Origin: an uncultured Verrucomicrobia subdivision 3 bacterium
GTDB taxonomy: Bacteria > Verrucomicrobiota > Verrucomicrobiia > Limisphaerales > UBA11358
Assembly (NCBI GenBank): GCA_903872345.1
Contig: CAIQKM010000157.1
Span: 10,755-74,754 of the forward strand
Length of the DNA stretch: 64,000 nucleotides
Direction: 5' to 3'
Below, in pieces: positions 19,165 to 63,116 of this stretch. Position numbers and translations under genes: made by a program. The notes beneath the pieces are model-generated. The model searched no databases and had not been told where the DNA came from. It saw only the letters and a list, made by a program, of their open reading frames with translations. Each line of letters opens with the position of its first letter. Positions within the stretch are counted from its first letter, which is position 1.

Positions 19165-19168
19165 GGCT

Positions 19169-23550: not shown

Positions 23551-26500
23551 ATGAGTAATGTCATGATAAAATCCCCAACCTGGGCGGTGCTGGCCGCCGG
23601 TCTGCTGGCTGCCCACCTGGCTTCGGCCCAGACGGAGAGCTGGAATGGCAGCGTCAATCAAAACTGGTCCACGGCCGGCAACTGGTCGGCGGTCGCGGTG
23701 CCCGGTTCGGCCACGAACGTGCTGTTCACCAACAGCGTGGGCTCGGCGGCGGCGGCCGGCGCCATTGACAACATCGTCAACAGCGGCTTTGGCGGCACCA
23801 TCGGGGCTTTGCAATATGCGAACACCAATACGAGCAACGGCGCCGGCTTCTATCACACCACGCAAATCGGCGCCGGCCAGACGCTGACGCTGACGGGCGG
23901 GCTGATAGCCGGCTCCCTGACGGACCTGGGCGGGAATGCGGTGGTCAACGCGGCCATTACCGGGGCCGGGGGCAAGCTGGTGATGAGCAACACCAGCAGC
24001 AATCTGGTGGCGAACCAGGGCAGTGGCACCAGCGGCGCCCATACCGGGATATTAAATCTGACGAATCTGGACGTATTCACCGCCACCATTGGCCGGATCA
24101 TCGTTGGCAACGCCTCCCTCGGGGTGGCGCGCGCCGAAGGGGCACTGTATCTGGCGAAGACGAACTTCATCACGCTGTCCGGCTCCGCCCCGCAAATCTA
24201 TGCGGGTTACAACAACGGCAATAACAATGGCAACAATACGTTCAGCTATATTTTTCTGGGCCAGTCAAATGTCCTTGCGGTCAACTCCATCACGATTGGC
24301 GCGGACAAGAACGCGGCGGTGATGGCGTTTAATCCGGCGATTACCAACGGCAACCCGGTGGCCGTGTTCCGCGGCGGCGGCGGCGGCACGAGCCGGGTGT
24401 CGTCCTGGACTCTGGGCAACAACTCGGCGCAGACCAGCACCGGCAGCACGAGCGTGGGGACGAATGATTTTTCGAACGGCTACCTGGATGCCATGGTGGA
24501 TTCGATGATTCTCGGGGAAAGCGAATCCGGCGCGAGCTCCGGTTCCGGGAGCGGCACGGGCATCTTCACCTTCACGGCCGGGACCAATAATGTGAACACC
24601 CTTTACGTGGGCTATCGGGTCGCCACCGGCGGCAACTGCGCGGGCATCGGCGCCATGAATGTGAACGGCACGGGCACGCTGATTGCGAACAATGCCATCT
24701 GCCTTTCATATTGGAATGGCGGCTCGGCCAACGCCTATGCCACCGGCAACTTGAACATCAATGGCGGCACGGTGCTGGCCAATACGATTACGAACGGGGT
24801 CACGGTGAGCGGAGCCAACAACACGGCCAACATCACCATCAATGGCGGCACGCTGGGCCTCACGAGCATTCTGGGCACGGCGGGCACGCTGGCGTCGCCC
24901 CTGTTGAATTTCAGCGCGGCCAATGCGGCCCTGCAATTGCAGGTGTCCGGAATCCAGACGAACATCGAGGCGGTGACGTTTAGTCCGTCCGGCCTGACCA
25001 ATCTAATCAATATCAGCTATCTGCCGCCCATCACCAGTTATCCGGTCACTTATCCGCTGATCGGCTTTCAAAACCTGGGGGGGACGCTCAATGTGGGGGT
25101 CAGCAACCTGCCGGCGGCGACGCCGGCGTATCAGGGGTATGTAACAAATGACGCCAACACGGTTTACCTGGTGCTGACCAGCGGGCCGACGCTCGGTTCG
25201 CAGGTGGACAAATGGACCGGCGCGGCGGGCGGCAACTGGGATGCGGTGACGGTCAACTGGAGCGCCTCCGGTTCGCCGGTGACCTATGCGAACGGCGCGC
25301 CGGTGCAGTTTGACGACACCGCCACGGGCGCCACGAACATCAATCTCACCACCACCCTGCTGCCGGCCAGCATCACGGCCAGCAACAGCGTGCTGCCTTA
25401 TATCCTGACCGGCACCGGCAAGATTTCCGGCGGCGCGGGCCTGACGAAGTATGGCAGTGGCACGCTGACGGTGGCGAACGCCGGGAACAATGATTTTGTC
25501 GGGAACATCACCATCAATGCCGGCGCAATCCAGTTTGGCAATGGCAGCACCAACGGGAATTTGCCGGTGACGGGAACGATCACCGACAACGGGAACCTGA
25601 TTTTCAACCACAGTAATAATACGCTCGTGCCTAACACTGTTACCGGCGGCGGCACGCTGACGCAAAATGGCAATGACGTGGTGACGCTCACGGCCTCCAA
25701 CAGTTTTAACGGCCTGGCGGTGGTGAACACGGGGATGCTGCTGGTGAACGGGGTGCTGTCGGGCGCGCTGACGAATGCGGCGGGCGCAACGGTCGGCGGC
25801 AATGGCACCAACGCGGGGGCGGCCAGCATCAGTGGCGTCATCCAGCCAAGCGCCGCCAGCGGCATGCCGGCGACATTCACGCTGGGCGGACTCGATCTGC
25901 TGGCCGGGGCGACCCCCCGGTTCATCCTGAATGGCACGGATAGCACGATGGGCAACGGAGTTAATGACCTGCTGCAGGTCAATGGGGATCTGGCGGCCAA
26001 CAATAACGCGGTGGCGCTCAACTTCATCGGCACCCCGCAGACAGGCGTGCCTTACACGCTAATCAATTACACCGGCAACCTGACCGGCAGTTTCGCAACG
26101 GCGGCGACGGGCACGCATTTCACAACGGCGGTGGACCAATCAACGCCCAATGAGATCAATGTGACCCTGAGCGGTTCGGGCGCAAACTTGAAATGGGATT
26201 CCAGCGTCAGCGCCACCTGGGATACCGGCATCAGCAGCAACTGGCTGAACGGCAGTTCGCCCGATGTGTTTTATGCCGGGGACAACGTGCTGTTGGACGA
26301 CACCGCCGGGGTGGTGACGAATATTACCATTGGGTCCGGCGTGGTGGTTTATCCAAATGTCATTACCGTGAGTTCGGCGGTCAATGATTTCAGCATAGGC
26401 GGCGGCCAGATCGGCGGGGCGGCCAGCATTCAGAAGAGCGGGGCCAGCGTCCTGGCACTGAACTCGGCGAACACGTTTACCGGGGGCGCCAATGTCACGG

Positions 26501-32726: not shown

Positions 32727-33893
32727 CTATTTTTCCGCCAACTGCTGTTCCAGCCAGGGGCCGACGGCAGCGGCCCATAACTGGCCGTGACGTTGCAATC
32801 CCCGGGCGTTGAAATGAATGCCCCGGCCGTTGTTCTGGCGGAATTCGGGGCCGAGCTGGTCGGTGGCGGGGCCGGCCAGGGCCAGACCATCCGTGACGAG
32901 CGATTTTTGGGCGGCGCAGAGTTCGGGGGTGCTTTGGTCATCCGGCGTATGATAGCTCACCTGGGCGACGAACCACGGGACGCGCCAACCGGCGGCGGTG
33001 CGCGAGGATTCGATGACACGTTGGAGATACCGGCGGTATTGGGCAGGCGTGATTTCGCGGTCCGGCGGCTGGCGGGAATCGGATTCGCCCTGATGCCAGA
33101 GCAGGGCGCGGAAGCCGCCGGGGCCGAAGAATTTTTCGGCGGTGACAATTTTATCGAACAAGGTGCCGGTGCAGACCCACTGGTTGGAGCCGGTGGTGAC
33201 GGTGTTCATGCCCGTGGTGGGCGGAGCGGCCATGGCGTCGCCGGCGGGCAGCCATTCGCGCACGCTGGTGGAACCGACCCCCAAGGCGACGAGCCCGACG
33301 GGCACCTGAAAGCGGGCGGCCATGGCATCCCCAAAAGCGGGCATAAAACTGCCGCCTTTGCCGCTGGCGCCAGGCTCGGGATCACGGGCGGGCTGCCAGT
33401 GGCCATCCAGAATGCTGTAAGCGACGACGAGCGGACTTTGGGCCGACTGTTTTTCTTCGCCGTGATTGGCGGAATTGGACTGGCCGGCGACCAGAAAAAT
33501 TTCACCAATGCCGACATGTTCCACGGTGTCGGTCCAAGCCACGAGACCCGGGCCGGCGAGGCGGATTTCGAGCCGGTACCAGCCGCCGGCCGGGGTGGGC
33601 AGTTCACCGCGAAAGCGCCGGACCCGGTTATCAAAGGGCAGGGGAACCCAGTTGTTAGTGGCGGTATCACTGATGAGCCGCGCTTCGAGCCGGTCGAGAT
33701 TGGTCAAGGCGGCGTGGCCTTGCACCTCGAGTTGGCCGGCGATAAGGATGGCGCCGGCGGCCTTGGTCTGCCGTTGAAACACCTGGTAATCGAGCGGGGA
33801 GGACAGGGTGATCTTGAGCGCGTCAGCGGAATCGGACTGCGCGCCGGCAGTGACCAGCAAGGAGCCAAGGAACAGGATCAACAGGGCTTTCAT
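32727..33893 (-). CDS. SGNH/sialate-O-acetylesterase-like carbohydrate esterase (DUF303-like)
   Basis: This is the 3' 388 codons of the 985-aa ORF track entry. ATG 33893 gives the signal peptide MKALLILFLGSLLVTAGAQS. EIFLVAGQSNSANHGE (GQSN block) and ALLWHQGESD match the SASA/DUF303 pattern. Confidence 0.85.
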   Translation of the reverse strand: MKALLILFLGSLLVTAGAQSDSADALKITLSSPLDYQVFQRQTKAAGAILIAGQLEVQGHAALTNLDRLEARLISDTATNNWVPLPFDNRVRRFRGELPTPAGGWYRLEIRLAGPGLVAWTDTVEHVGIGEIFLVAGQSNSANHGEEKQSAQSPLVVAYSILDGHWQPARDPEPGASGKGGSFMPAFGDAMAARFQVPVGLVALGVGSTSVREWLPAGDAMAAPPTTGMNTVTTGSNQWVCTGTLFDKIVTAEKFFGPGGFRALLWHQGESDSRQPPDREITPAQYRRYLQRVIESSRTAAGWRVPWFVAQVSYHTPDDQSTPELCAAQKSLVTDGLALAGPATDQLGPEFRQNNGRGIHFNARGLQRHGQLWAAAVGPWLEQQLAEK

Positions 33894-34034
33894 GGACGGA
33901 AGTCTAGCGGCGGGCGGCCAAGATTGCCATCGCCCGATTTCGCGTTTGACATTAATTCCAAAAATTTCCGGAAAACGTGCGCCGGTTTTTTTCCGTGGTT
34001 GAATGGGGGGATGAGCTGTGGCACTAATGAAGGA

Positions 34035-37000
34035 ATGCCATTTTTGCCGTCCCTCATCCGCCGGGTTTGCCTCTGGGCCCGGGTGCTGCTGCTGCTGGCG
34101 GCAGCCGGCGGGCGGCTGGCGGCGGACACTGCTCAGGATTACATGGTCAAGATCTGGAGCGTGGATGACGGCCTGCCGGAAAGCAGCATCAGCGACGTGA
34201 TCCAATCCCGGGACGGTTACCTCTGGGTGAGCACTCTGAACAGCGGACTGGCGCGTTTTGACGGGGTGCGGTTTGTGAATTTTGATGTGCCGTTTGCCTC
34301 GCAGTTTACGAGCGGCGGGGTGCGTCGTTTGTTTGCGGCGGAGGACGGGACGCTCTGGATCAATGGCTTTGGCAATTACGTGGCCAGCCTCCGGGGCGGA
34401 TCGTTTCAACTGGAAAACACGCAGCCGTCGGTTTTCAACTGGCTGGTCTGGCAAAAGGCCGGGCAGGTGGTGTTTGCCACGAAGGAGGGGCAGTTGCTCG
34501 CCGGCACGCCGACGGCCGGGACGAATTACACCTGGCACACCATGCTGGCGCCCGGCGCGGGTGAAAACGCCCGTTTTTTTGCGGATGCTGGGGGCGGTTT
34601 TTGGTATCGCCGGGCGGATGGACAGTTGGCGCGGATAACGGGGACCGAAGCCGGTGTGATGCCGCTGCCCGCCGGGGGTGCCGGCATTATGGCGCTGACC
34701 GGCGACAATCAGCAACGGATCGCGGTGGCCAGTGCCAACGGCCTGTTCGTCTGGTCGGGCGACAAATTTCAAGAGGCGACGCCGATCAATGGTGAACCAG
34801 GTTTCACGGCCCATGGGATCGTATCCGACGGCCGGGGCGGCTGGTGGGTGGAAGTGAACAATCGGCTGCGGCGCTGCCATGACCGTCAGTGGATTGCGGA
34901 GGCAACCGACTGGCGCAAACAGCGGCGCACGTGGTCCAAAGTCCGCTGGGAGCAGCCGGACGCCAATGGCGGGCTGTGGCGGGCTTATACGGATGGCGGG
35001 GTGGTTCACGTGGACCCGGCGGGCAAACTTTCGGCGCTGACCGCCGATGACGGGCTGCCCAGCAACCGGGTGCGGACGTTGACCCAGGATCGGGATGGCA
35101 ATGTCTGGGCGAGTTTTGAACGGGGCGGGGTGGTGCGCATCCGGCCGCGGTTGTTCCAGTCGGTTGGACGGGCGGAAGGGCTGGCGGATTCGGTGACCAC
35201 TTCGGTTTGCGAGGATGCGCGGGGGGCGGTGTGGATTGGCACGTTGAGCGGGGCGGTCAGTTGCTGGAATCAGGGCGTGTGCCGCAATTTCACGCTGCCG
35301 CTGGAGGGCACGCATTGCGAAATGTCCACGGTGTTTCCCGATTCCGGGGGCCGGATCTGGGTTGGCACGCATGGCAACGGCTTGCTGGTCTATGAGGATG
35401 GCCAGTTCCGGCATGTGCTCTCGCTTGGCCAGGTGGGGGTGAACATCCGGGGGATTTTTGTGAGTCGTGACGGCCGGGTCTGGATTGCGAGCCAGGACGG
35501 ATTGTATTGTCTGGCGAACGGCGAAGTGCGGCGGGTGCAGACCCCGCGATCGGAGGCGGATTACCCCGTGGCGCTGGCGGAAGGCGCGGACGGAGTGATC
35601 TGGGTGGCGCTGAACACGGGAGTGCTGATGAAATATGCCGGCGGGCAGATCACCGCCTATCAGCCGGAGGAGGCCGCCCTGCACAGCCGGTTTTCCGCCG
35701 TGTGTGTGGATTCACCGGGCACGGTTTGGGTGGGGACGCTGGGGGCGGGGCTGCTGCGGTTTCAAGCCGGTCATTTTACGGCCATCACCAAACGGGACGG
35801 GTTGCCAACCGACAACATTTCCCAGGTGATCGACGATGCGGCGGGCGGATTATGGCTGGGATCGCCCGCCGGGATCATTGCCGTGCGCAAAGAATTTTTA
35901 AATGGCCGGGATGGAAATGCGGTGGGTCGTGTTTTTGGGCGGGATGACGGTTTGCCCACGGTGGGGTGCGCCACGGCATCACAACCAACCGTCTGGCGGG
36001 GCCGGGAGGGAAGGCTGTGGTTTGCAACCGCCAACGGCCTGACCAGTGTGCAGCCGGGAAATACCCAAACGAGACAGAGTCCCCCGGCGGTGTTGCTGGA
36101 GGAAGTGCGGATCGACGGGCAGCCGGCCGGGGCGGTCGCCGAGGGGAAACCGCTGCCGGCCGGGGCAACGCTCCGGTTGAGCCCGGGCCGCCACCAGCTT
36201 GAATTCCGTTACACCGGATTAAGTTTCACCGCCCCCGAGCGAATCCGGTTCAAGTATATGCTGGAGGGGTTGGATGGCGTCTGGGTGGATAACCAGTCTG
36301 ACCGGACCGTGAGTTATCATGACGTGCCGCCGGGCGAATACCGTTTCCGGGTGAATGCCTGCAACAGTGATGGCCACTGGTCGGCGGCGGAGGCCACCGT
36401 GGCGTTGGTGCTGCCGCCCCATGTCTGGGAAACGGCTTGGTTCCGGCTGACGGCCCTGGCGGCGAGCCTGCTGCTGGTGGCGGGTTCGGTGTTCTGGATC
36501 TCGCAGTTGCGCCACCGCCGGCAACTGCTGGTCTTGCGGCAGCAGCAGGCGCTGGAACGCGAGCGCACGCGGATTGCCCAGGATATTCATGATGATCTCG
36601 GGGCGAGCCTGACGCGCATCACGATGCTGAGCCAGTCGGCGTTGAACAAACCGGAGTCCGCCGCGCCGGCCGGCGAAGTGAAACGCATTTATGCGACGGC
36701 CCGGGCCATGACCAACGCGATGGATGAGATCGTCTGGGCGATCAATCCGCGGCATGATTCGATTGAAAGCGTGGCGGCCTATTTTGCCGATTTCACGGAG
36801 GAGTTTCTGAGTCCTGCGGGATTGCGGTTCCGGATTGATATTCCGCTGCAGTTGCCGGCGTGGTCCATCAATGCGGAAGTGCGGCACAACCTCTTCCTCG
36901 CCTTCAAGGAAGCCATGAACAATGTGGTCAAACATGCGCAGGCCAGCGAGGTGGCCGTGGTTTTGGAAGTGCGGCCGAACGGGTTTGTGCTGTCGGTGAG

Positions 37001-37184
37001 CGACAATGGCCGGGGTTTTGCAGCGCCGGCGCCGGCGCCACCGGGGTCGGCGGCGGTCGCGGCCCGGGGCAACGGGTTGAACAACATGCGCCGCCGGCTG
37101 GAAGAGCTCGGCGGTCGCTGTGTCATTGCCAGCGTTCCCGGCCAGGGCACGCAGGTGCGGTTTGAAATGGATGTGCGCGCATGA
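34035..37184 (+). CDS. Sensor histidine kinase with periplasmic beta-propeller repeats + Y_Y_Y domain, HisKA_3 + HATPase_c
   Basis: The real gene is the 3' part of ORF 32787..37184. ATG 34035 (MPFLPSLIRRVCLWARVLLLLAAAGG) or 34011 is the start. It has propeller blades (DGYLWVST, DGTLWING, GAVWIGT, GRIWVGT, ...). The Y_Y_Y block is FKYMLEGLDGVWVDNQSDRTVSYHDVPPGEYRFRVNA, followed by the TM helix WFRLTALAASLLLVAGSVFWI. The H-box is RTRIAQDIHDDLGASL, then the ATPase boxes. Confidence 0.88.
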   Translation: MPFLPSLIRRVCLWARVLLLLAAAGGRLAADTAQDYMVKIWSVDDGLPESSISDVIQSRDGYLWVSTLNSGLARFDGVRFVNFDVPFASQFTSGGVRRLFAAEDGTLWINGFGNYVASLRGGSFQLENTQPSVFNWLVWQKAGQVVFATKEGQLLAGTPTAGTNYTWHTMLAPGAGENARFFADAGGGFWYRRADGQLARITGTEAGVMPLPAGGAGIMALTGDNQQRIAVASANGLFVWSGDKFQEATPINGEPGFTAHGIVSDGRGGWWVEVNNRLRRCHDRQWIAEATDWRKQRRTWSKVRWEQPDANGGLWRAYTDGGVVHVDPAGKLSALTADDGLPSNRVRTLTQDRDGNVWASFERGGVVRIRPRLFQSVGRAEGLADSVTTSVCEDARGAVWIGTLSGAVSCWNQGVCRNFTLPLEGTHCEMSTVFPDSGGRIWVGTHGNGLLVYEDGQFRHVLSLGQVGVNIRGIFVSRDGRVWIASQDGLYCLANGEVRRVQTPRSEADYPVALAEGADGVIWVALNTGVLMKYAGGQITAYQPEEAALHSRFSAVCVDSPGTVWVGTLGAGLLRFQAGHFTAITKRDGLPTDNISQVIDDAAGGLWLGSPAGIIAVRKEFLNGRDGNAVGRVFGRDDGLPTVGCATASQPTVWRGREGRLWFATANGLTSVQPGNTQTRQSPPAVLLEEVRIDGQPAGAVAEGKPLPAGATLRLSPGRHQLEFRYTGLSFTAPERIRFKYMLEGLDGVWVDNQSDRTVSYHDVPPGEYRFRVNACNSDGHWSAAEATVALVLPPHVWETAWFRLTALAASLLLVAGSVFWISQLRHRRQLLVLRQQQALERERTRIAQDIHDDLGASLTRITMLSQSALNKPESAAPAGEVKRIYATARAMTNAMDEIVWAINPRHDSIESVAAYFADFTEEFLSPAGLRFRIDIPLQLPAWSINAEVRHNLFLAFKEAMNNVVKHAQASEVAVVLEVRPNGFVLSVSDNGRGFAAPAPAPPGSAAVAARGNGLNNMRRRLEELGGRCVIASVPGQGTQVRFEMDVRA

Positions 37185-40785: not shown

Positions 40786-40896
40786 AACCGAAACCCTGAG
40801 GTTTGATATGAGTTTGAAAAGCTGCTGACAATGTCCACCGGCAAGATCGGGCAAACGCCCGGCCAGGACGCCGGTGGACTATTTGACACCATATTG

Positions 40897-43800
40897 ATGA
40901 ATTATTCGGCCCAGCGAGCCCTGCGCCAGTGGCGGTTGAATGTCCTGGTGCTGGCGCTCGGGGCCGGCCTGCCGGGCGGATCCGTGCGGGCGGACGACTT
41001 TAATTCGCGGGCGGCGGCATTTTTGAATTACTACGACACCGCCACCCCCAATCTGCCCCAGACCGGCAGCGGCCCGCATCGGATTGGGCGCACCGGTTTC
41101 TGGGCGGCGGAAGGCCGGTTTTTGAACAACGATATTTCCAACGGTTCCAATTTTCTGGCACAGGCCCTCGGCGATGCCGATTCCGAGGGTTCCGACGCCG
41201 GTTTTTCCATGTGGCCCGCGATGGACTGTTATTTGCGGTGGAGCAGTCTCGCGACCGTATTTACGCCGGCGGTGAGCAATCTGTTTCAGACCCAGCTCGT
41301 CGCCAACGGCACGAACTACGGCAGCGGGGCGACTTCGAACCAGCGGATGATGCTGGCGACCGCGCATTATTTGGCCGGGATGGTTTGGGGAACCAATGCA
41401 TTTCCCGCCGGCGCGCCATTTTCGGCGGATTATGGCACGGGAGATCCGAGCGGGCTGGCCTATGTGTCCAATACCATTGTGAACATTCCGTTTTACGGCC
41501 TGCCGGAGCATGATTCGCTGATCTATGAGCAGTTTACACTGGGTCCGATGTACACCCTGGAACAGTTTGCCCCGGACACGGTGCTGCGCCAACAGGCGCG
41601 CGTGGCGTTTGACTGGGCCGTGGCGGAAATGGCCGGATATTATTTTTACGACAACTGGGCAATTGCCTCGGATCGGACGGAACCCTTCTGGGTGCCCAAC
41701 CAGCCGACCCCGACGACAATGATGACCTACCTGTTCTTCGGCGGTCCGGTTCCCGGCACGCTGCTGGAAGCCTATCCCTCGGCACTTTACTGCCTGCCCA
41801 ATTTTCCCGGGGTGCCGCCGGAGGTGGTCATGGCCGCCACCAACCGGACGCAGCCCTACACGCATTACAGCACCGCCATGCGCAACACGGGCGGTTACAA
41901 CAACGCCTATTTCAAAACCGCCTATGTCACGCCCGGTTACGCGGTTTACAGCCAGGCCGAGTGCGGAGTGCAGACGAATGGTGATGGCAGTTATTCCATC
42001 ACCAATTACGGCACGGTCAGCTTGAGCGATCCGCATCAGATGCAGCGCTGGGGCGTGGTTTGGAATGCGCCGGGGGACCAGACCAAGTTCTGGATCACCA
42101 ATCCCTACAACCCGGTATATTCCGGCTCCGCACCCAATACTTACATCGGCACCACCATTGCGGAGCAGACCGTGCAATTGGGCGGCACGGTGGCGGCGGT
42201 TTATAACATTCCGACCAACGCGACCAAGCCGGACTGGAATCATAACGGCGTGGCGATGACGAACTATCAGGTGCTCGAAGGCCAGATCCCGACGAATTAC
42301 TCCGCTGTGATTGACAACGCCGCCGCCGGCGGGCGCGTCTATCTGCATTACACGAATGTCCTGATCGCCTTGTATGTGAGTACGAACTTTACCTGGCAGG
42401 CGGACACCAACGGGACGAATTATTTTCTGATTCCCGCCAACGTTGCCGGGTTGGCGGTGGAGACGGCTGCGCCGGCGGAATATCCGCAGACCACCGCCGC
42501 CTTGCGGTTGGCGGCCTTCCGTAACGATGTGCTGACGCTGGGCGGCGTGAACACCAATTACCTGGCCGGCCCCAACCCGGCGATGATTTACACGGACCGG
42601 CATGGGAATACGCTCCAGATAACCTTCGGGCAGGGCGGCCGGACCAACGGTCGAAGCATTGATTACCAGCAATGGCCGGCCATTGGCAATCCATGGATGA
42701 GCCAGGCGCAATTGGGGAATCTATTTATTTTTGGCACCAACCGGACCCTGATTTATAATTTCAACACTTGGACGGAAGCCACCAACAACCAGCCGGTTTT
42801 GTTGACGAATGCTTCCGTGGCGCTGGCGCAAAACAATGCCGGGACCATTGACCTGGCGGCGCGGGTCAGCGATGCGGAAACCCCGGCCGGCAATCTGCTG
42901 TTCGGGGTCAGCAATCCGTTCAACGGTTCGGTTGCATTGATGGCGGACGGGCATACGGCAAGCTTCACGCCGGCGACGAATTATTCCGGCGCGGCCGGAT
43001 TCAGTTTTACCGCCACCGATGAGGGCACCGATCCTCGCCTGGTGCTCTGCTATAATTTTGCCCCGCCAGGCACACTAACGAGCAACGTGGTCGCCGATGT
43101 TTCCGGCAATGCCCGGTCCGCCCGTCTGGTGACCGTGGGCACGGGCACAGCCGCCTATTCGCCGTCCGTTCCGGCGGCCCTGGCGCCATTCAGCACGCAG
43201 TCGCTGCGGCTCACCCAGTCGGCGAATGGGGCCAATGCCGTGGCGCTGAGTCGGACGATTACCACGGGAAACCTGAGCCTGACGAATGGCAGTTGGACGC
43301 TGGCCGCCTGGTTCCAACGCGCCACGCTGACGAATGATCAGTTCCTTTTTTATGCCGGCAGCGGCGACGGTTTTGGCGGCGCTGGCGATGAATTGCAATT
43401 GTATTGTCCGGCGAACACGAATTCCGTTGCGCTGTCGCATTGGAACACCGGCAACGTCCAGGACCTGGCCCTGGTTTCCGCCGGCACGGCGGGCACGAAC
43501 CAATGGCACCACGTCGCGCTGGTCTGCCAGCACGGGACCAATGGGGCAAACAATGTGAGCCTTTATCTGGATGGATCACCGGCCGGCACGGCCGGCAATA
43601 TTATGTGGTCGCTCAAGCAGAATTATCCGCTGGTCTTTGGCGGACATGCTTCGACCGCGTCCAAGACGTACCGCTGGTTCAATGGTTCGCTTGCTGATCT
43701 GGCGCTGTTCCGCGGCGCCTTGAGCGCGACGGAAATCGCGCAACTGGCCACACGGACGGTGAGCCATTTCGGCGGCTGGACGATCACCAATGCGGTGACG

Positions 43801-44310
43801 GTCAACGTCAGCGCGCCCCCGGTATTGGCCATGATTTCCAACCGCACTGTTGGCGCCGGGGTGACCATGGTCATCACCAATGCGGCCACGGTTTCACCGC
43901 CGCAAACCCTTGCCTTCGGATTGGCGACGGCGCCCGCCAATGCGGTCGTGGACGCCAACACGGGGGTGCTGATGTGGCGGCCGGCGGTGGCGCAGGCGGG
44001 GTCGACCAACCCCTTCAGCGTCACCGTCACCGGCGGAGGTTCGCCCAGTCTGAGCGCGACCCAGAATTTCACGGTGACAGTCGCCAAACTTAATCCGGCC
44101 CGATTGTCCGGGTCGGTGCTGGCCAACCAGCGGCTCAGTTTTCAGGTGAGCGGTGATTCCGGACCTGATTATACGGTCCAAGCTTCCACGAATCTGGCGG
44201 CCTGGAACAATCTTTTCACTACCAATTCACCCGCGCTGCCGTTTAACTGGACGAATGCCGCCGTGCCGGGTGTTTCGCAGCGGTTTTATCGTCTGTTGCT
44301 TGGGCCCTGA
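40897..44310 (+). CDS. Large secreted protein: unknown ~640 aa N-terminal domain + cadherin/Ig-like + LamG + Ig-like + FYR-type C-terminal module
   Basis: The ATG at 40897 gives MNYSAQRALRQWRLNVLVLALGAGLPGGSVRA. The Ig/cadherin-like block is VSDAETPAGNLLFGVSNPFNGSVALMADGHTASFTPATNYSGAAGFSFTATDEG. The LamG block is WHHVALV...LYLDGSPAG...FNGSLADLALFRGALSATEIAQL. A putative Ig domain follows (PPQTLAFGLATAPANAVVDANTGVLMWRP). The tail is GVSQRFYRLLLGP. Confidence 0.85.
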   Translation: MNYSAQRALRQWRLNVLVLALGAGLPGGSVRADDFNSRAAAFLNYYDTATPNLPQTGSGPHRIGRTGFWAAEGRFLNNDISNGSNFLAQALGDADSEGSDAGFSMWPAMDCYLRWSSLATVFTPAVSNLFQTQLVANGTNYGSGATSNQRMMLATAHYLAGMVWGTNAFPAGAPFSADYGTGDPSGLAYVSNTIVNIPFYGLPEHDSLIYEQFTLGPMYTLEQFAPDTVLRQQARVAFDWAVAEMAGYYFYDNWAIASDRTEPFWVPNQPTPTTMMTYLFFGGPVPGTLLEAYPSALYCLPNFPGVPPEVVMAATNRTQPYTHYSTAMRNTGGYNNAYFKTAYVTPGYAVYSQAECGVQTNGDGSYSITNYGTVSLSDPHQMQRWGVVWNAPGDQTKFWITNPYNPVYSGSAPNTYIGTTIAEQTVQLGGTVAAVYNIPTNATKPDWNHNGVAMTNYQVLEGQIPTNYSAVIDNAAAGGRVYLHYTNVLIALYVSTNFTWQADTNGTNYFLIPANVAGLAVETAAPAEYPQTTAALRLAAFRNDVLTLGGVNTNYLAGPNPAMIYTDRHGNTLQITFGQGGRTNGRSIDYQQWPAIGNPWMSQAQLGNLFIFGTNRTLIYNFNTWTEATNNQPVLLTNASVALAQNNAGTIDLAARVSDAETPAGNLLFGVSNPFNGSVALMADGHTASFTPATNYSGAAGFSFTATDEGTDPRLVLCYNFAPPGTLTSNVVADVSGNARSARLVTVGTGTAAYSPSVPAALAPFSTQSLRLTQSANGANAVALSRTITTGNLSLTNGSWTLAAWFQRATLTNDQFLFYAGSGDGFGGAGDELQLYCPANTNSVALSHWNTGNVQDLALVSAGTAGTNQWHHVALVCQHGTNGANNVSLYLDGSPAGTAGNIMWSLKQNYPLVFGGHASTASKTYRWFNGSLADLALFRGALSATEIAQLATRTVSHFGGWTITNAVTVNVSAPPVLAMISNRTVGAGVTMVITNAATVSPPQTLAFGLATAPANAVVDANTGVLMWRPAVAQAGSTNPFSVTVTGGGSPSLSATQNFTVTVAKLNPARLSGSVLANQRLSFQVSGDSGPDYTVQASTNLAAWNNLFTTNSPALPFNWTNAAVPGVSQRFYRLLLGP

Positions 44311-44338
44311 AGGGTGCGGGAACCGGCCATTTGAATTT

Positions 44339-46057
44339 ATGAAGAAATTGTTTTATGCGGGAATGACGGGCTTGCTGCTCGCGGCCGGGACGCTGACGGA
44401 GGCGGGGCCGGCCATGGAACTGCGGGTTGGCAGCGGCGAGACCGTGCTCGAACATTACAAGGATTACGGCTACAACGTCATCATCCTGGGGGATGTGACC
44501 CAACTGGCCGGCTATGATTCGATTTATCCGCATCTCCTGGCCCCCGGGTCCGCGCTGCAAAAACGGATTGAGCAGCACCGGCGGAAATTCAAGACCATGT
44601 CGGAACAGGCGGATTCGCTGGGGCTGGCGGTGTGTCTCATGTCCGATGAAATTTCCCTGCCCACGGTGGTGCTGGAACAGTTGCGCCAGGCCGGCATGGC
44701 CGGGAGCGGACGGCTGGGGATTGATTTTGACAGCGAGATTTTCTGGACGGCGTACCGCGCCAAATATCGCGAGGTGCTGCGCGCCTGGCCGCGCGCGGCG
44801 TATGTGATGATCCGCACGGGCGAAAATTATTCCCACCCGGAGGAGGGGTTCTCCGGGCGGACGGTGGTGGACAAGACCATCGACGACGCCTATTTCAAAA
44901 ACATGCGGCGGCTCATTGAGGAAACCCGCAAGGTGGTGGTGGATGAATTCGGACGCACGCTCATCTGGCGTACGTGGGATTTGGGGAATGACGGTTTTCA
45001 CGCCAATCCGGCGGTCTATGACCGGATTCTGCAAGGGTTGCCCAGCCGCAAGGGCTTGATATTCGCGGTGAAATTCACGCAGACGGATTTCTGGCGCTAC
45101 AACGATTTCAATCCCATGATCGGCCGGGGCGGGGTGGACCAGATCATCGAATTTGAATGCGCGCGCGAGTATGAGGGCAAGGGGGCGTTTCCGGATTACA
45201 TCGGACCCGAACATGCGGAGGCGATGCGCCGCTGCGAGGCCATCGGCGTCAAAGGGGTTTGGGTTTGGGATTCCGGCGGCGGCTGGGGCGGTCCGTTTTT
45301 AAAGTCGGATATGTGGGATCGCCTGAATGTCGAGGCGACGACCCGGCTGGCGCAGAATCCCGATCTGTCCGCGCGGACGCTGGCGGAAGCCTGGGCGGCA
45401 CGCGAGTTCGGTCCGGCGTCGGCAGCCAAGGTGGCGGATATGCTGATGCTCTCGGGGGAGTGCGTGAACAAGTTCATGTATATCGCCCCCTATGCCCGCG
45501 AGCATCACGGCTGGAAGCCCAGTTTGAACCTGATGCGGGATGACATCATTCGCGGCGAGCCGCTGAAGGCGCTGTATGAAGGTTCCAAAAAGGCGCTGCC
45601 GGAGGCGCTCCAGGAAAAGGCGGAGGCCGTGGCCTTGGCCAAACGCATGCGGACCCTCTTTGAAAGCGCCCATGACAGCATTGTTGCGGAACGCGGCCAG
45701 GCGGTTTACGATGATGCCCATGGCAGTCTGGTTTACTTGGAATCCATGACCGAGGTGGTATCGCATTATGTGCGGGGCATGTTCCTGTATTATCACTGGC
45801 AGGAAACCGGAGACGCGACTGAAGCGGGGAAGGCCCGGGTGGAACTGCTGGCTTGGCGGGAGGCGTGGCACGCCTACCAAACCGGCATACCAAAGCTGCC
45901 CGGCGCGGCGTCGCCGTATCGTTCGCAAAATACGCAGGAGGCGGCCTCGGCCAAAGGCGCCATGGCGGATCTGTGCGAGAATGCCTTGAAATCACTGCCA
46001 GCGACGGCGGGCAACCGGGTATTGTCGGCCACCGGCACTGCGGTCAGCCGGCAATGA
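44339..46057 (+). CDS. Secreted hypothetical protein, possibly a TIM-barrel glycoside hydrolase (family unknown)
   Basis: The ATG at 44339 gives the signal MKKLFYAGMTGLLLAAGTLTEAG. The composition is ordinary for a coding region. Its stop overlaps the start of the following GH92 (ATGA at 46054..46057). I recognise no firm family motif. IIEFECAREYEGKG only loosely recalls GH67-type blocks. Confidence 0.72.
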   Translation: MKKLFYAGMTGLLLAAGTLTEAGPAMELRVGSGETVLEHYKDYGYNVIILGDVTQLAGYDSIYPHLLAPGSALQKRIEQHRRKFKTMSEQADSLGLAVCLMSDEISLPTVVLEQLRQAGMAGSGRLGIDFDSEIFWTAYRAKYREVLRAWPRAAYVMIRTGENYSHPEEGFSGRTVVDKTIDDAYFKNMRRLIEETRKVVVDEFGRTLIWRTWDLGNDGFHANPAVYDRILQGLPSRKGLIFAVKFTQTDFWRYNDFNPMIGRGGVDQIIEFECAREYEGKGAFPDYIGPEHAEAMRRCEAIGVKGVWVWDSGGGWGGPFLKSDMWDRLNVEATTRLAQNPDLSARTLAEAWAAREFGPASAAKVADMLMLSGECVNKFMYIAPYAREHHGWKPSLNLMRDDIIRGEPLKALYEGSKKALPEALQEKAEAVALAKRMRTLFESAHDSIVAERGQAVYDDAHGSLVYLESMTEVVSHYVRGMFLYYHWQETGDATEAGKARVELLAWREAWHAYQTGIPKLPGAASPYRSQNTQEAASAKGAMADLCENALKSLPATAGNRVLSATGTAVSRQ

Positions 46058-48417
46058 ATATGGGCAACCACATGAATCATCATTGGCGAAGCTTGTCGGT
46101 CCTTATGCTGCTTGTCTGGGGCCAGGTGTTTGCCCGGGCCGAAGTTGCCCGGACGCCGGCGGACTATGTGAATCCGCTGATCGATACGCACAAGTCGCGC
46201 TGGTTCTTTTTTTCCTCCGCCTGCCGTCCGTTTGGCATGGTCAATCTGAGCCCCGACACCCGCGTGGGCGGCGATTGGCTTTATGGCTATCTCTACGGCG
46301 ACGACCAGATCCAATGCTTCAGCCATGTCCACGGTTGGCAATTGTACGGCGTGCCGGTGATGCCGATGACCGGCGAAATGCATGCCCAGGCAGGGCTGGC
46401 GGCGGCGGCATCCGGCTTTTCGCATGCGGATGAAATCGTTTATCCCGGTTACCACCAGGTGGTGCTCAAGCGTTACGGCATCACGGCCGAGTTGACCGCC
46501 ACCACCCGCGTGGGGTTTCATCGTTACACGTTTCCGGCGGCCCGGGCGGCGCGGATCGCCTTTGATACGAGCGCGACCCTGATGGCGGACATGCAGGCGG
46601 GCGCGGTGCGCCAGACCGGTCCCCAAGAAATTGCCGGATATTCGGTCATGGCGGCCACGCAGCGGCGGCCGAAACCGTTTACGGTCTATTTTGTGGCTCA
46701 ATTCAGCCAGCCGGTAACCTTTGGCGCGTGGCGGGATAAGCGGCTGTTGCCGGCGACCGTGAAGGAGGTTGCCGGCAAAAGTGTCGGCGGGTATGTCAGT
46801 TTTCCCACCACCAACGGCGAACAGATGCTGGTGAAGGTCGCCATCTCGTATGTCAGTGAGGCGAACGCACGGATGAATCTCGCGGCCGAACTGCCCCATT
46901 GGGATTTTGACCGGGTGGTGCGCGAATCGCAGGCGGACTGGAATCAATGGCTTGGACGCCTTGCCGTCGAGGGCGGGACCGAGCCGCAGAAAATCAAGTT
47001 TTACACCGATCTTTGGCATGCGCTGCTGGGCCGGCGGATCGTAAGCGATGTGGATGGCAGTTATTGCGACCTGACCGGGCCGCAGCCGGTGACGCGGCAC
47101 GTTCGGCGGGACGCCCAGGGGCATCCGCTGTTCCCGCATTATAATTTTGATGCGCTGTGGGGCAGCCATTGGTCGCTGAACCTTCTCTGGTCGCTCGCCT
47201 ATCCGGAGGTTATGGACGGCTTTTGCAACACGATGGTGGACATGTATCACGATGGCGGTTTGATTCCGCGGGGGCCTTCCGGCGGAAATTATACGTACGT
47301 GATGATCGGCGATCCGGCCGTGCCGTTTTTTGCGGCGGCTTACAATCAGGGCATCCGCCATTACGATGTCGGCGAAGCTTACGCCGGCTTGCGCAAGAAC
47401 GCGCTGCCCGGCGGTATTCGCGACCATGCCGGCTATGAGTTTGGCACGCCGGCCAGCGGCGGCGGCATGAAATATTATGTGGATCGCGGTTACGTGCCGG
47501 AAGATATCGACGGCAAGGGCATGCACAAGGATGGCGCCGCCATGACGCTGGAATATGCCTATGAAGACTGGTGTCTGGCCCAGCTGGCCAAGCCGCTGGG
47601 CCGGGCGGATGATTATCAATGGCTCCTGCGCCGGGCCGGGAATTATACGAATCTTTGGGATGCGGGCATCAAATCCATGCGGCCGCGCAACGTGGACGGC
47701 TCCTGGCTCGCGGACTTTGCCCCGGTGGGCAAGGCCGGATCGTTTGCCGGCAAGGGATTCTGCGAGGCGGATGCCGCCATTTACACGCATTTCGTGCCGC
47801 AGGATGTGCCGGGCCTGATCCGGCTGTTCGGCGGGAACGAAGCTTACGTTACCGCGCTTAATCACCAGTTTGAGCAGGCCGCGCCGTTGCGCTTTGTGGT
47901 GCAGCACGGTCAGCACGGCGGCGCCTGGGTGGATTACGACAATGAGCCTTCCATGGCCATGGCGCATATGTTCAATTTTGCGGGTGCCCCGTGGCTGACT
48001 CAGAAATGGGTGCGGGAAGTGAAGGCGCAGGCTTACGGCGACATTACGCCGTCCGGCGGTTACAATGGCGACGAGGATCAGGGCCAGTTGGGCGCGTTGG
48101 GAGTGTTGATGGCCATCGGCCTGTTTGATGTGGAAGGCGGCGCGGCCATTCAGCCGACTTACCAAATCACCAGTCCGCTGTTTGACCGCATCACCATACA
48201 ACTGGATGCAAACTACTTTCCGGGAAAACAGTTTGTCATCACCACGCGGAATAATTCCGCAACCAACGTTTACATCCAATCGGCCCGGCTAGATGGTCAG
48301 CCGCTGAACCGTTGGTGGTTTCCGCATGCCGATCTGGTCAACGGCGGTTCGCTGGAAATCGAATTGGGACCGCAACCCAGCCGCTGGGCGGCGGATTCGC
48401 CGCTCCGCCAAGAGTGA
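46054..48417 (+). CDS. GH92 alpha-mannosidase (second copy)
   Basis: The ATG at 46054 gives MNMGNHMNHHWRSLSVLMLLVWGQVFARA. FGMVNLSPDT, CFSHVHGWQ, GFHRYTF, YDNEPSMAMAHMFNFAG and GDEDQGQLGALGVLMAIGLF are collinear with the GH92 at 11919..14204. Confidence 0.88.
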   Translation: MNMGNHMNHHWRSLSVLMLLVWGQVFARAEVARTPADYVNPLIDTHKSRWFFFSSACRPFGMVNLSPDTRVGGDWLYGYLYGDDQIQCFSHVHGWQLYGVPVMPMTGEMHAQAGLAAAASGFSHADEIVYPGYHQVVLKRYGITAELTATTRVGFHRYTFPAARAARIAFDTSATLMADMQAGAVRQTGPQEIAGYSVMAATQRRPKPFTVYFVAQFSQPVTFGAWRDKRLLPATVKEVAGKSVGGYVSFPTTNGEQMLVKVAISYVSEANARMNLAAELPHWDFDRVVRESQADWNQWLGRLAVEGGTEPQKIKFYTDLWHALLGRRIVSDVDGSYCDLTGPQPVTRHVRRDAQGHPLFPHYNFDALWGSHWSLNLLWSLAYPEVMDGFCNTMVDMYHDGGLIPRGPSGGNYTYVMIGDPAVPFFAAAYNQGIRHYDVGEAYAGLRKNALPGGIRDHAGYEFGTPASGGGMKYYVDRGYVPEDIDGKGMHKDGAAMTLEYAYEDWCLAQLAKPLGRADDYQWLLRRAGNYTNLWDAGIKSMRPRNVDGSWLADFAPVGKAGSFAGKGFCEADAAIYTHFVPQDVPGLIRLFGGNEAYVTALNHQFEQAAPLRFVVQHGQHGGAWVDYDNEPSMAMAHMFNFAGAPWLTQKWVREVKAQAYGDITPSGGYNGDEDQGQLGALGVLMAIGLFDVEGGAAIQPTYQITSPLFDRITIQLDANYFPGKQFVITTRNNSATNVYIQSARLDGQPLNRWWFPHADLVNGGSLEIELGPQPSRWAADSPLRQE

Positions 48418-50321: not shown

Positions 50322-53300
50322 ATGAAGCTGCTGCCCAAAAACAAACATCTATTCACCTTTGCCGCCTTGGTGCTGCCTTTGGCCATGCAAGGCGCCAATA
50401 TTTCCCTGACCGCCAATGATGCCGTCGGCACCACCTCCTTCAATGCCGCCGGCCATTGGAGCAACGCCCTGGCTCCCGTTGCCACCAACAACTATTTTAC
50501 GGCGGCGTACGGCATGCGGACCCCCCCGACTACCAGCAGTTATACGTTTGGTGGAGCCTCCCTGACCTTGGGTCCTTTGGTGGCGGCCACTTCCGCCTAT
50601 GGACTTATCGTCAAAAGTTCGGTTGCGGCGGGGGGCAGTTGGACCATGACCATCAATAACTTTACCAACGCTGGCACCCTCTTGCGTAGCGGCGGGTCCA
50701 CCGGGTCCACCACCATTCTGGGCGGGAATGTGTTTGCGGTCACGGGGAATTCGACCATCGCCGCCGATCAAACCTATTGGACCATTAATTCGCCGCTGGC
50801 AGGCGCCGGCATCATTACCAACACCTTTGCCAACAATCAGACCATCACTTATGCCGGCACCAACACGGCGTTTTTAGGCGGCTTTAACGTGGCTGCCGGC
50901 ACCGTCATTTTGACCTCGGCAAGCGGTGGGTTTGCCAATCCCGCCGCGCTTTTTACGAACCAGATTACCCTGCAAAATGGGGCCGTATTCCAGGATAACG
51001 GCGGGGTCTCATTTGGTTCCAATAGCGGCTTCCTGCTGGCGGGCAACGCCACGATTTATACCCCAAACGCGACCACCACGGTGCTGGCCGGGCCGGTTTC
51101 CGACAGTGGCAGCGGCTATAAACTCACCAAATCCGGGGTTGGGGGTTTGAGCCTGTCGGCTAGCAACACCATTGCCGGCGGTATCACGCTAAACGCCGGT
51201 CTCCTGGGGTTTTCCACTTATGGCCTGGGCGGCGGACCGCTCACCTATTCCGCTGGCAGCCTGCAATGGCTGCCGGGCAGCACGGCGGACATTTCCCTGC
51301 TGTCACCCACCATTACCGCGAACGCGACTTTGGATGTCGGCACCAATTACGTTGGTTTTGCGAACGGCCTGACTGTTCCCGGCAGTTTGACCAAGCTGGG
51401 TATCGGCACGCTGGCTTTGAGCAATAACTGTTCGATTGGCGGCGCGACCACCGTTAGCAACGGTGTGCTGGCGCTCGTCGGTTCCGGTTCCATCGGTTCC
51501 AGCACCAATATTAATCTGACGGCGGCGGCCACGCTGGATGTCACCGGTTTAAGCGGCGGTTATACGTTGGGTTCCGCCCAGACGCTGGGCGGCAGCGGCA
51601 CGGTGAATGGTGCCCTGACGGATTATTATAACTCGGTGATCGCCCCGGGCGGCAACCGGGTGGCGGGCACGTTGACCGTGAATGGCAACCTGACGTTGGG
51701 CGGCTACGGCGGCAGCGATGCGTTGAACCTCGATATCACCAACACCCCGGGAATCGGTGGCGGCAGCAACGACCTGGTGGTGGTCAATGGCAACCTGAAC
51801 CTGAACGGCGGTACGGTGGTGAACCTTAACTTCCTGTCCGGCGCTCCCGGCGCGGGCGTCTATACCATCCTGAAGTACACGGGCACGCTGACCGGTGATC
51901 CAGCCGCCATGCTCACCCCCCCCCAGTCTCGGCACCAGCTATAACGTCACCTTTGCCGTCTCCAATTCCAGCGTGGTGCTCGTCATAGCCGGCGCCCCGC
52001 AGGCCCAGCTTTGGACGGGCATTAACAGTTCGGAATGGGACTTTGCCACGGCGAACTGGACCAATAAAAACACCCTGCTGGCGGATGATTTTTCGCAGGG
52101 CGACAGCGTCACCTTTGATGATTCCGGCAACAGCGCCTCGCCCGTTGATTTGACCGCCGCGTTGCTGGCCACGGCCATAACGGTCAGCAACAATACGGCG
52201 GCTTACACCTTTTCCTCCGCTTCCGGCCAGGGTTCTTTGACTGGCCCGGCGTTGCTGACCAAGAGCGGTACGGGCACCCTGATCCTTGACACCGCCAACA
52301 CCTACACCGGCGGTACGCTGATTAAGTCCGGCACCGTGCAGGTGGGCAATTATGACGCCGCCGGTGCTTCCCTGGGCAGCGGCGCGGTGACCAACAACGC
52401 CAGCCTCGTGTTTGCGCATAGTGATACCGTGGTGATGCCGTCTGTCTCCGGCGCCGGCACCGTGAGCTGCATCTCCGGGACCACGGCGGCGCCGAACGCC
52501 AGCACCTACACGGGCAACACCTACGTCACCAGTGCGTATGCCCTGTTGCAAAACAGTGCGGCGTTTGGTGCCACCAATGGCAGTCTGATCATTAATGGCG
52601 GCCAGCTGTATGTCGTGGCGAACGTGGACATCGGGGCCAATCCGCTCGTGCTCTCCGGCAGCGGTCCGGATGGCAATGGTGCCATTCGCAAAGGCTATGC
52701 CGGACCGTCCACGTTTTTTGGCACGGTCACCCTGGTGGGTGACACCGCGTTGAGCATCGATGGCGGCGCCACTCTCACGCTGACGAACGCCGCGGGTGTG
52801 ATCGGCACCAACGTCAATCTGACTCTTGGCGGCGGCGGCACGGGCAACCTGCCTGCGCCCATCCAGCTGGGCGCCGGCGGTATCACCGTCAATGGCAGCA
52901 CCTGGAACGTGGGGGCCAGCAACAACTACTCCGGAACCACCATGTTGAACGGCGGGGCTTATCGCATCACGGCCCCGGGTTCCTTGGGCTTGGCTCCGGC
53001 TTCCTTCAACTCCGCTCAAATCATCTTCAACGGCGGTGCCCTGGAAACCGCCACCAATGTGATCCTCAATGATGGCCTGCGCGGTTTGCAAGACAATGTC
53101 ACCGGCACCATCACGACGGATACCAATACCACCCTCACCATTTATAACGACATTACCGGTACCGGCAACCTGACCAAGACGGGCCCCGGCAAACTTGTCC
53201 TGGCGGGCACGAATGATTTTACCGGCAATCTCTACGTGGATAGCGGCCAGTTCTATGTCAACACGCTGGACGGCCTGACTGTGATCGCCAACACGGCGGC

Positions 53301-54408
53301 GCTGGCCAACGTGCCCGTCATACCCGGTTCGCCGTATATCTGGCAGCGCGACAATACCGCCGGCAGTTCCACCCTCGGTTTGGATGGCACCACCGGCAGT
53401 GTCACCATCGCTCCCGACCTGTACATTCGTGGTCGCTCTCCCGTGGTGGCGAACATTGAAAACCTCGCGGGCAGCAACACCATCTCCGGCAACATCACCG
53501 TGGATACCGGTGGTGCCCTGTATATTCAATCCGATGCGGGCATCTTGAATCTGACCGCTCCGTTTCCGTATGCTGCTTCCACCCCCGCAACGACCCGCAG
53601 CCTCACCTTCATGGGCGCCGGTACCACCTTGGTTTCCGCTGGCATCCAGAACATCAACTCCGGCGGCACGGCGGTCAATGTCACGCAATCCGGTCCGGGT
53701 ACGCTGGTCCTGGCCGGTGCCAGCACCGGCGCCGGCACGACGACGGTGGGTGGCGGCGTCCTCTCAGTGGCGGGCACGCTCGGTTCAGGCAACGTGACCG
53801 TTTCCGGCGGCTTGCTCACCGGCAGCGGTATCATCCCGGCCCCGGTCTCCGTGGCCGCCGGCGGCAGCATCGAAGCCGGCAGCACCAATGTGATCGGCAC
53901 TCTGACCGTGACGAACCTGTCGCTGGCGGGTAACACCATCGTGAAAATCAGCAAGACCGGTGGCACCGGCGATCTGTTCACCGGTCTGACCAATGTGGTT
54001 TACGGTGGCTCGCTCACCGTCACCAACCTGGCGGGTACTCTGGCGTTGGGCGATCATTTCACCCTGTTCAGCACGCTCGCCTCCTCCGGCGGGTTTACGA
54101 ACATCGTGGGTGCGCCCGGCGCCGGCCTGGCATACGGCTTCACCAACGGCGTGTTGAGCGTCGTTGCGGGCGTGGCCGGCAACCCCACCAATATCACTTA
54201 CAGCGTCAGCGGCGGTTCACTGAACCTGGCCTGGCCGGCCGATCACCTCGGCTGGATTTTGCAGGCGCAAACCAACGCGCTGACGGTGGGTGTCGTCGGT
54301 TCGAGCAATGCCTGGTACGACGTCACCGGCAGCGCGGCGGTGACCGCCACGAGCATTGTGATTGATCCCGCCAAGCCGACGGTATTCTACCGTTTGCGTC
54401 ATCCCTGA
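50322..54408 (+). pseudogene. Giant PATR beta-strand repeat protein gene interrupted by a +1 frameshift in a C9 tract (pseudogene, phase-variable gene or sequencing error)
   Basis: ORF 50184..51944 and ORF 51895..54408 are in adjacent frames and overlap across ccccccccc (51916..51924). Removing one C gives ...YTGTLTGDPAAMLTPPSLGTSYNVTFAV..., collinear with ...YTGNLTGSFATAATGTHFTTAV... of the paralog at 23551..27972. ATG 50322 gives MKLLPKNKHLFTFAALVLPLAMQGA. PATR units lie on both sides of the break, and the tail is PTVFYRLRHP. Confidence 0.8.
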
Positions 54409-54500: not shown

Positions 54501-55304
54501 ATGAATCCGGAAAACACCAGAAAAACTGTCCTCGCTAAGGGATTCACCCTGATCGAACTCCTCGTCGTCATCGCGATCATCGCCATTCTCGCCGCCATGC
54601 TGCTGCCCGCCCTGGCCTCGGCCAAGGAAAAAGCCAAGCGCATCCAGGACGTCAATAACATGCGGCAGGTGGCCTTGGGCACCTCGGTTTACGCCGGGGA
54701 TAATCAGGATGTGGTCATGCAGGCGCGCGCCGTGGGCACGGCCTTTTGTCAGATCGCCCTGAATCCGCCGGACGCGACTGCGGCGGCGGCGGTGGGGCTG
54801 ACGGTTCAGACCAATACCCCGACCATCTGGTCTTGTCCCAACCGTCCCGGGTTGCCGATTTATCAGCCCAATCCGGTTGGCCAGCCGCCGCAATGGGTGC
54901 TGGGCTACCAATACTTCGGCGGCATTGCCACGTGGTATAACCCGCAATATTCCGGTGGTGTGCCGTCGCACAGTCCCGTCAAACTGGGGCAGGCCAAACC
55001 CTTCTGGACGCTCGCGGCCGACGCAGTCATCAAGGTCAATGGCGTGTGGGGCGGCACTGACCCCGGCAATCCGGATGCCTATATGCATCTGCCGCCGCAT
55101 CGGAACGGCAACGTTCCGGCTGGCGGCAGTGAGGCACGGTGTGATGGCTCGGCCCTGTGGAGCAAGTTCAACGAAATGTATTTCTTTACCAGCTGGGATG
55201 CCTCCGGTACCACCCGCGCCTGTTTCTACAGCCAGGATACGAGTGATCTGGATGCGGCGTTTGTGGCCAGCCTGACGTCCCTGAAAGCGACGCTCTGGCA
55301 GTAA
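54501..55304 (+). CDS. Prepilin-type N-terminal cleavage/methylation domain protein, divergent H-X9-DG-family member
   Basis: The N-terminus is [27 protein letters not shown]. The C-terminal region [25 protein letters not shown] has His and DG, but with 14 rather than 9 intervening residues. Confidence 0.88.
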
Positions 55305-63038: not shown

Positions 63039-63116
63039 GGTAATTTATGCCCGTTTGTCAAACACTTGTTTGAATTTAGGCGCAGCGGGGGGGGAATAAA
63101 AGGGCGGGAGAGCCGA

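Follow-up and report, generated by a model that had tools for sequence, protein, structure and literature searches.

A C9 tract breaks the reading frame of a PATR surface-protein gene in a freshwater lineage of Verrucomicrobia subdivision 3, probably as a young pseudogene

In a 64,000-nucleotide stretch of DNA from an uncultured Verrucomicrobia subdivision 3 bacterium (GenBank assembly GCA_903872345.1, contig CAIQKM010000157.1; referred to below, at its full length, as the window), a gene for a surface protein with PATR beta-strand repeats (50322..54408, forward strand) is interrupted just once, by a +1 frame break in a run of nine cytosines (C9; 51916..51924, forward strand). Comparison of this locus with its intact relatives and with other metagenomic assemblies indicates that it probably represents a recent, fixed frameshift generated by slippage, i.e., a young pseudogene on a mutable tract. 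The same C9 is seen in every consensus sequence of this lineage, it is missing from all orthologues compared, and the part of the gene that lies downstream of it bears no sign of relaxed selection.

The C9 tract is the longest homopolymer in the window. It is followed by a G8 run at 63087..63094, located in an apparently AT-richer intergenic stretch, and by several 7-mers. The number of C9 runs in the window is not above chance, with one observed versus 3.85 expected from dinucleotide shuffles; what is not random is that the run falls exactly on the gene's sole frame break. The upstream open reading frame (ORF A; 50322..51944, forward strand) consists of the N-terminal 540 codons, begins with a Sec-type signal peptide, MKLLPKNKHLFTFAALVLPLAMQG, and ends in MLTPPQSRHQL at a premature TAA in the same frame (51942..51944, forward strand), seven codons 3' of the tract. 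Its start has been placed at GTG 50184 in the ORF list and also at ATG 50268 by gene callers; the likely true start is ATG 50322, which opens the signal peptide (MKLLPKNKH), and the orthologues P0002 and P0003 begin at an MK... signal peptide that matches this position. The C-terminal 827 codons (51925..54408, forward strand) lie in the +1 frame and contain three PATR repeats and a C-terminal module ending in FYRLRHP. Listed as ORF B from a GTG at 51895 (51895..54408), this part lacks a signal peptide, and no Shine-Dalgarno-like motif is recognisable before that GTG.

Across the tract, frame A reads ACC CCC CCC CAG TCT CGG CAC CAG CTA TAA, and ORF B uses the identical bases shifted by +1. Deletion of one C joins the two frames into one continuous ORF, whose junction reads LTGDPAAMLTPPSLGTSYNVTFAV and which codes for 1361 amino acids (aa) from MKLLPK or 1408 aa from the GTG. 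The junction peptide of this frame-restored protein is AAMLTPPSLGTSYNV, in contrast to AAMLTPPQSR at the C-terminus of the truncated one; a version of the tract with the run interrupted would read CCGCCCCCC. The preliminary description of this DNA had placed the C9 at these positions, as the point where one PATR gene is split, and had predicted the fusion and its junction upon loss of one C, all of which we confirm. It had also described the junction as collinear with a paralogue in the window, and the fused junction does align collinearly with that paralogue (23515..27972) at 33% identity with an E value of 3e-12; the alignment with intact orthologues is far better. Two shorter runs, C7 at 50521..50527 within ORF A and G7 at 25077..25083 within the PATR paralogue, are in frame and leave their reading frames intact; they are usable as internal stutter controls for read counting.

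Both halves of the split gene belong to the PATR family, as their repeat matches exceed the curated cut-offs: ORF A and ORF B score, respectively, 27.0 and 55.8 bits with PF12951 (cut-off, 27) and 25.8 and 56.0 bits with TIGR02601 (cut-off, 19.85). Hundreds of homologues are annotated as PATR proteins. In Pfam searches at an E value of ≤0.01, PATR is the only domain found in either half, so that the C-terminal beta-barrel of classical (type Va) autotransporters is not detected, and the last 79 aa have no Pfam or NCBIfam match at an E value of ≤1.

Homopolymers are classic sites of indel errors, and an assembly error, with a true C8 tract and an intact gene, had been named in the preliminary description as an alternative. 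The Logan contigs from eight lake and freshwater metagenome runs, which belong to three studies (2016, 2017, and 2020), cross the C9 with 0 gaps and 0 mismatches at depths of ~4x to 165x. The run is equally present in L001 and L002, two MEGAHIT k141 contigs of other ENA assemblies that match the window at 100.000% identity along 7686 and 5937 bases, respectively. In the protein collection, the exact ORF B product (837 aa, P0121) is found on 16 contigs and the exact ORF A product on 17, in a 558-aa form on 13 of them and in a 540-aa form on 4, in accordance with two start calls. In one of the eight runs, X4, a second allele, CCGCCCCC, was resolved at 10x separately from the C9 allele at 165x within the same assembly, which means that the method is capable of keeping length variants apart at this site. 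The gapless C9 thus does not depend on the assembler, being found in Logan unitig contigs, in MEGAHIT k141 contigs, and in the assembly of the window itself; the error scenario is discarded, and an artefact of sequencing or assembly appears exceedingly improbable. The other window genes that were checked are intact, so that the window does not have a general homopolymer-indel problem. Two more pairs of ORFs were considered as possible split genes and rejected: 44153..46057 and 45853..48417 are two genes, since the latter ORF possesses a start and a signal peptide of its own, and the overlapping ORFs 5543..6553 and 6433..8055 are two different genes, encoding an N_methyl and a GH125 protein. 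The region 50322..54408 should be annotated as one frameshifted PATR gene, and neither as two genes nor as an assembly error.

Searching 5.8 billion protein clusters with the repaired protein identified intact, full-length orthologues at several levels of divergence: P0001 and P0122 (1386 aa as called, 90% identical, found on ~18 contigs), P0002 (1361 aa, 74% identical), P0003 (1348 aa, 55% identical), and P0004 (1379 aa, 45% identical). P0001/P0122, P0002, and P0003 (1348 to 1386 aa) align to the split gene from end to end, so that, as in a frameshift pseudogene, a single +1 break sets the window gene apart from its collinear orthologues. The closer orthologues share the synteny of the window, with a DUF6625 gene upstream and genes for an MFS transporter and RND efflux components downstream. 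The 90% sister lineage is represented in GTDB by the metagenome-assembled genome (MAG) “Verrucomicrobia subdivision 3 bacterium Umea2p1_bin-1422” (L009, which is the same as L003, in a protein-based scan) and shows ~89% DNA identity and ~90% aa identity to the window. An exact 34-mer from the 5' side of the tract has no match among the GTDB species-representative genomes, and hence the window lineage itself is not one of these representatives.

At the junction, the closest orthologues carry Thr/Val-Ala-Pro-Ser/Ala, encoded by ACC GCC CCC AGT in the sister lineage (where the 8-nucleotide CCGCCCCC occupies the tract position), ACC GCT CCG GCG in L006, and GTC GCG CCC AGC in L007, and the window reads ACC CCC CCC C AGT. 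The C tract is missing from all orthologues compared, and the more distant ones have no run at all. Given that these orthologues lack the run in conserved synteny, the C9 is derived and unique to the window lineage. This pattern suggests an origin in two steps, with the substitution coming before the slip. In an ancestor with ACC GCC CCC AGT (Thr-Ala-Pro-Ser), a G-to-C transversion (Ala to Pro) would have merged C2 and C5 into a C8 run, still in frame as Thr-Pro-Pro-Ser, and replication slippage on the new run would then have inserted one more C to give C9. A functional C8 intermediate is plausible because the distant homologues P0019 and P0025 have Pro at the Ala position. The part of the earlier proposal that invoked slipped-strand mispairing as the source of the +1 indel in a homopolymer is supported.

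The ratio of nonsynonymous to synonymous substitution rates (dN/dS) between the window and the sister lineage, calculated by the Nei-Gojobori method, is 0.110 for the upstream part and 0.115 for the part downstream of the tract. When changes were polarised with L006 as the outgroup, the downstream half showed 44.5 synonymous and 15.5 nonsynonymous changes on the window branch versus 62 and 18, respectively, on the branch of the intact sister (Fisher p = 0.69). The window branch departs from the neutral expectation (73% nonsynonymous) with p = 8e-14, and its neutral share amounts to at most ~12%, corresponding roughly to a dS of ≤0.008. The 827 downstream codons contain no second stop or indel. 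There is, accordingly, no relaxed selection in the downstream half, which means that the break is recent or that the gene is still used, and the selection data do not separate the two. For a frameshift pseudogene, the absence of relaxed selection and of additional lesions downstream fits a very recent event and is no proof of decay.

A gene that is still in use could be a phase-variable one, as had been suggested in the preliminary description: slipped-strand mispairing would reversibly switch between C8 (ON, full-length protein) and C9 (OFF) under fluctuating selection, e.g., by phages, grazers, or attachment substrates. Simple-sequence contingency loci of this kind are known from Neisseria, Haemophilus, Campylobacter, and Helicobacter, where poly-G/C tracts reside in surface and modification genes (PMC3711429), and switching by mononucleotide repeats has been speculated for the verrucomicrobium Akkermansia (PMC3048395). 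The split gene has the classic anatomy, a hypermutable repeat inside the reading frame for a secreted or surface repeat protein, placed so that the loss of one C restores the frame and a protein collinear with the orthologues; the gene is otherwise preserved, with a dN/dS of ~0.12 and no second lesion. What is not seen is length polymorphism with ON and OFF alleles. Every consensus is C9, both in the eight runs from three studies and in the 17 ORF A and 16 ORF B contigs. The 5.8 billion clusters hold no fused (C8) protein of the window lineage, the best match being the 90% sister, and no C10-type ORF A with a different tail, as the 90% cluster of ORF A consists only of two start-variants of the exact sequence. 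Two scans of the JGI metagenome contigs for 7 to 11 bases between lineage-tolerant flanks (C7 to C11) gave 0 matches, indicating that the lineage is absent from that collection and making these scans uninformative on alleles.

Established contingency loci, furthermore, retain their repeat across strains, whereas here the tract is absent in every orthologue, the corresponding codons being GCC CCC, GCT CCG, or GCG CCC, and such repeats do not recur in related genes. The proposed search for other poly-C or poly-G tracts in genes of this type yielded the opposite of an enrichment: in 80 loci (551 kb) that encode relatives in Verrucomicrobiota MAGs, there are no C runs of at least 8 and a single G run of at least 8, compared with ~41 expected from base composition. 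Long G/C runs are thus avoided in the related PATR loci (~40-fold depleted), and neither the genome nor the family bears a signature of contingency loci. Runs of at least 8 are also missing from the other PATR paralogue of the window. We therefore consider reversible ON/OFF switching unlikely, and a biologically meaningful one is probably absent. At the consensus level, the locus corresponds to the outcome that the preliminary description itself had named as refuting its proposal, a fixed C9 in a plain pseudogene.

Several observations weigh against the interpretation of the locus as a young pseudogene. The absence of a second lesion and of relaxed selection is also what would be expected of a gene that is still used, whether phase-variable or recoded; recency accounts for it, yet is no proof of function loss. 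All samples hold one clonal lineage: the fetched lineage contigs, L001 (7.7 kb) and L002 (5.9 kb), have no single-nucleotide polymorphism relative to the window, so that the many observations are independent sequencing checks of one clone and not independent evolutionary samples. Since contigs drop rare variants, a minority of C8 cells may be present in each sample. Finally, in the lake metagenome X4, where the region 51820..52020 was compared, the C9 lineage is found at 165x and the ~89%-identical sister with the intact CCGCCCCC allele at 10x. The dominance of the broken allele where both lineages co-occur implies that the break, at a minimum, carries no cost, and it leaves room for an adaptive OFF state.

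These points could be accommodated by a contingency locus caught at its birth, in which a new C8 run toggles between C8 (ON) and C9 (OFF), OFF is favoured, and a minority of ON cells falls below the resolution of contigs. If so, OFF would dominate in the lake samples because, for example, the protein is a phage or grazer target, and if C8/C9 mixtures were shown, this would be a rare case of simple-repeat switching outside host-associated bacteria. We consider this version, too, improbable.

A gene with C9 might also remain in use if its frame were restored during expression, through +1 frameshifting of tRNA-Pro on CCC-C or through slippage of RNA polymerase. The tRNA-Pro can re-pair without mismatch in the +1 frame at any position of the run, the product of a +1 shift would be identical to the C8 protein, and purifying selection can still be seen 3' of the tract. 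The motif CC[C/U]-[C/U] is shift-prone, with +1 frameshifting reaching up to ~1% in Escherichia coli at a favourable position (PMC4519876), and rescue of a frameshifted rpoB reached ~5% at a CCC preceding a rare codon (PMC10861913). The main criterion for programmed frameshifts is conservation of the site (PMC3711429), and the shift site is conserved in no orthologue, all of them being in frame without the tract. The 0-frame A-site codons are CCC and CAG, the latter a common Gln codon (25.9 per 1000), rather than a “hungry” or stop codon, and there is no Shine-Dalgarno-like element at the short spacing seen in prfB. Two potential stimulators were rejected. The sequence GGTGATC (51893..51899), the sole anti-SD-like heptamer, lies ~20 nucleotides 5' of the tract, is GGCGATC in the sister lineage, and was dismissed as a coincidence. 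The 76 nucleotides 3' of the tract fold at -24.4 kcal/mol (z = -2.8 versus shuffles), but a fold of this strength or better is reached in 164 of 402 windows of equal size from the gene, and the orthologues form other structures, so that this hairpin is average for the gene and not conserved.

As for the polymerase, a transcriptome-wide survey found homopolymer insertions only in A/T runs, with G/C runs not slippage-prone and deletions rarely located at homopolymers (PMC5574713), which makes transcriptional slippage unlikely here. Programmed slippage would call for a conserved long A/T run (typically of at least 9), whereas this run consists of C and is not conserved. With the features of a programmed site missing and G/C runs not prone to slippage, read-through is expected at ~1% or less. 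Low-level leakiness of the C9 is therefore plausible, a selected recoding mechanism is not supported, and there is little chance that the full-length protein is still made in this way.

The two halves might, alternatively, act as independent proteins, the 540-aa N-terminal fragment being secreted and ORF B perhaps being initiated separately. ORF A does retain its signal peptide and ends close to a module boundary, just 5' of a W-x-G...W-D...N-W...F-D-D motif that also opens modules of the paralogue. ORF B, on the other hand, has neither a signal peptide nor any recognisable ribosome-binding site ahead of GTG 51895, every orthologue is a single polypeptide, and the split is confined to one clonal lineage. 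Taken together, these features make a functional split very unlikely.

If the gene is indeed a young pseudogene, as we favour, translation of its 1361 codons would now stop seven codons 3' of the tract and produce a 540-aa N-terminal fragment with a signal peptide, leaving the 827 downstream codons with neither a signal peptide nor an evident start signal. The C9 allele is fixed, at the consensus level, in a clonal freshwater population of Verrucomicrobia subdivision 3, and the outcome would be that one of several paralogous PATR surface proteins is lost. As a C9 run is slippage-prone, occasional reversion and trace +1 ribosomal read-through on CCC-C would be expected, and neither of them would be a selected mode of expression. 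The main value of this case is that of a clear negative: phase variation is the story that a homopolymer frameshift in a surface gene invites, and the comparison points to a one-off recent slippage instead. It is of modest interest, in addition, that both mutational steps can apparently be read from a sympatric sister with an intact gene and that the abundant lineage is the one whose copy is broken.

The C-terminus of the split protein is shared with other giant secreted proteins in the window. Four such proteins, the split one included, of the LamG/Ig, PATR, LamG, and PATR types, carry C-terminal modules of ~75 aa (5380..5622, 27745..27972, 44090..44310, and 54170..54408, respectively) that end in FYR[IL]... 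or FYILRVP. In the proteins encoded by 23515..27972 and 40831..44310 and by the split PATR gene, this module has no Pfam or NCBIfam match at an E value of ≤1, and many Verrucomicrobiota loci match only the last part of the query, with 50 to 60% identity. The shared module may be an undescribed sorting or anchoring domain. Directly 3' of two surface genes, 1336..5622 and the split PATR gene, are genes, at 5705..6553 and 54501..55304, whose products of ~270 aa carry an N-terminal methylation motif of the prepilin type (PF07963). The pairing of a surface gene with a PF07963 gene is kept in the sister lineage and is missing at the locus of the 74% orthologue.

Outside the split gene, the window is an intact neighbourhood for polysaccharide degradation that also includes hybrid sensor kinases. 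A glycan-degradation cluster at 6433..22060 encodes a GH125 alpha-mannosidase, a GH29 fucosidase, GH92 and GH2 enzymes, and a SASA-type acetylesterase with a GH2-like domain; it is adjoined by a hybrid histidine kinase of the Reg_prop/Y_Y_Y type, and a second kinase-type ORF lies within 32787..37184. Among the contigs with homologues of the split protein, L010, L013, and L067 (CAZUBG01...) and L052 (CAYPSF01...) belong to MAGs labelled “uncultured Bifidobacteriaceae bacterium” (binchicken_co3_517 and co54_474) and encode Verrucomicrobia-type PATR proteins that are 45 to 60% identical; these taxonomic labels look wrong.

Compared with known systems, the split protein resembles the PATR proteins (PF12951, TIGR02601) of Verrucomicrobiota in its repeats scoring above the cut-offs, its signal peptide, and its long Gly/Thr/Asn-rich repeats; it differs from autotransporters in that it has no detected beta-barrel and ends in the unannotated ~75-aa module finishing with FYRLRHP. 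With the prfB-type and adventitious CCC-N sites of +1 frameshifting (PMC5009743, PMC4519876, PMC10861913), the tract shares a P-site tRNA that re-pairs in the +1 frame and a shift that would restore the protein; in contrast to prfB-type sites, it is devoid of site conservation, of a stop or rare A-site codon, and of a correctly spaced Shine-Dalgarno-like stimulator. The contingency loci of host-adapted bacteria likewise have a switch-competent G/C homopolymer in the coding region of a surface protein, where a change of one unit toggles the frame. Unlike in those loci, no length polymorphism is seen here, the tract is not conserved, and neither the family nor the genome neighbourhood is enriched in such tracts; the organism, moreover, is a free-living freshwater polysaccharide degrader. 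The favoured reading places the locus with slippage frameshift pseudogenes, an ordinary form of gene decay in bacteria, which combine a 1-bp insertion in a homopolymer, an early stop a few codons further on, intact relatives, and a lesion restricted to a single lineage. The window gene departs from the usual members of this class in being very young, with no second lesion and no relaxation of selection, and in that both steps of its likely origin can be read from the allele of its sister.

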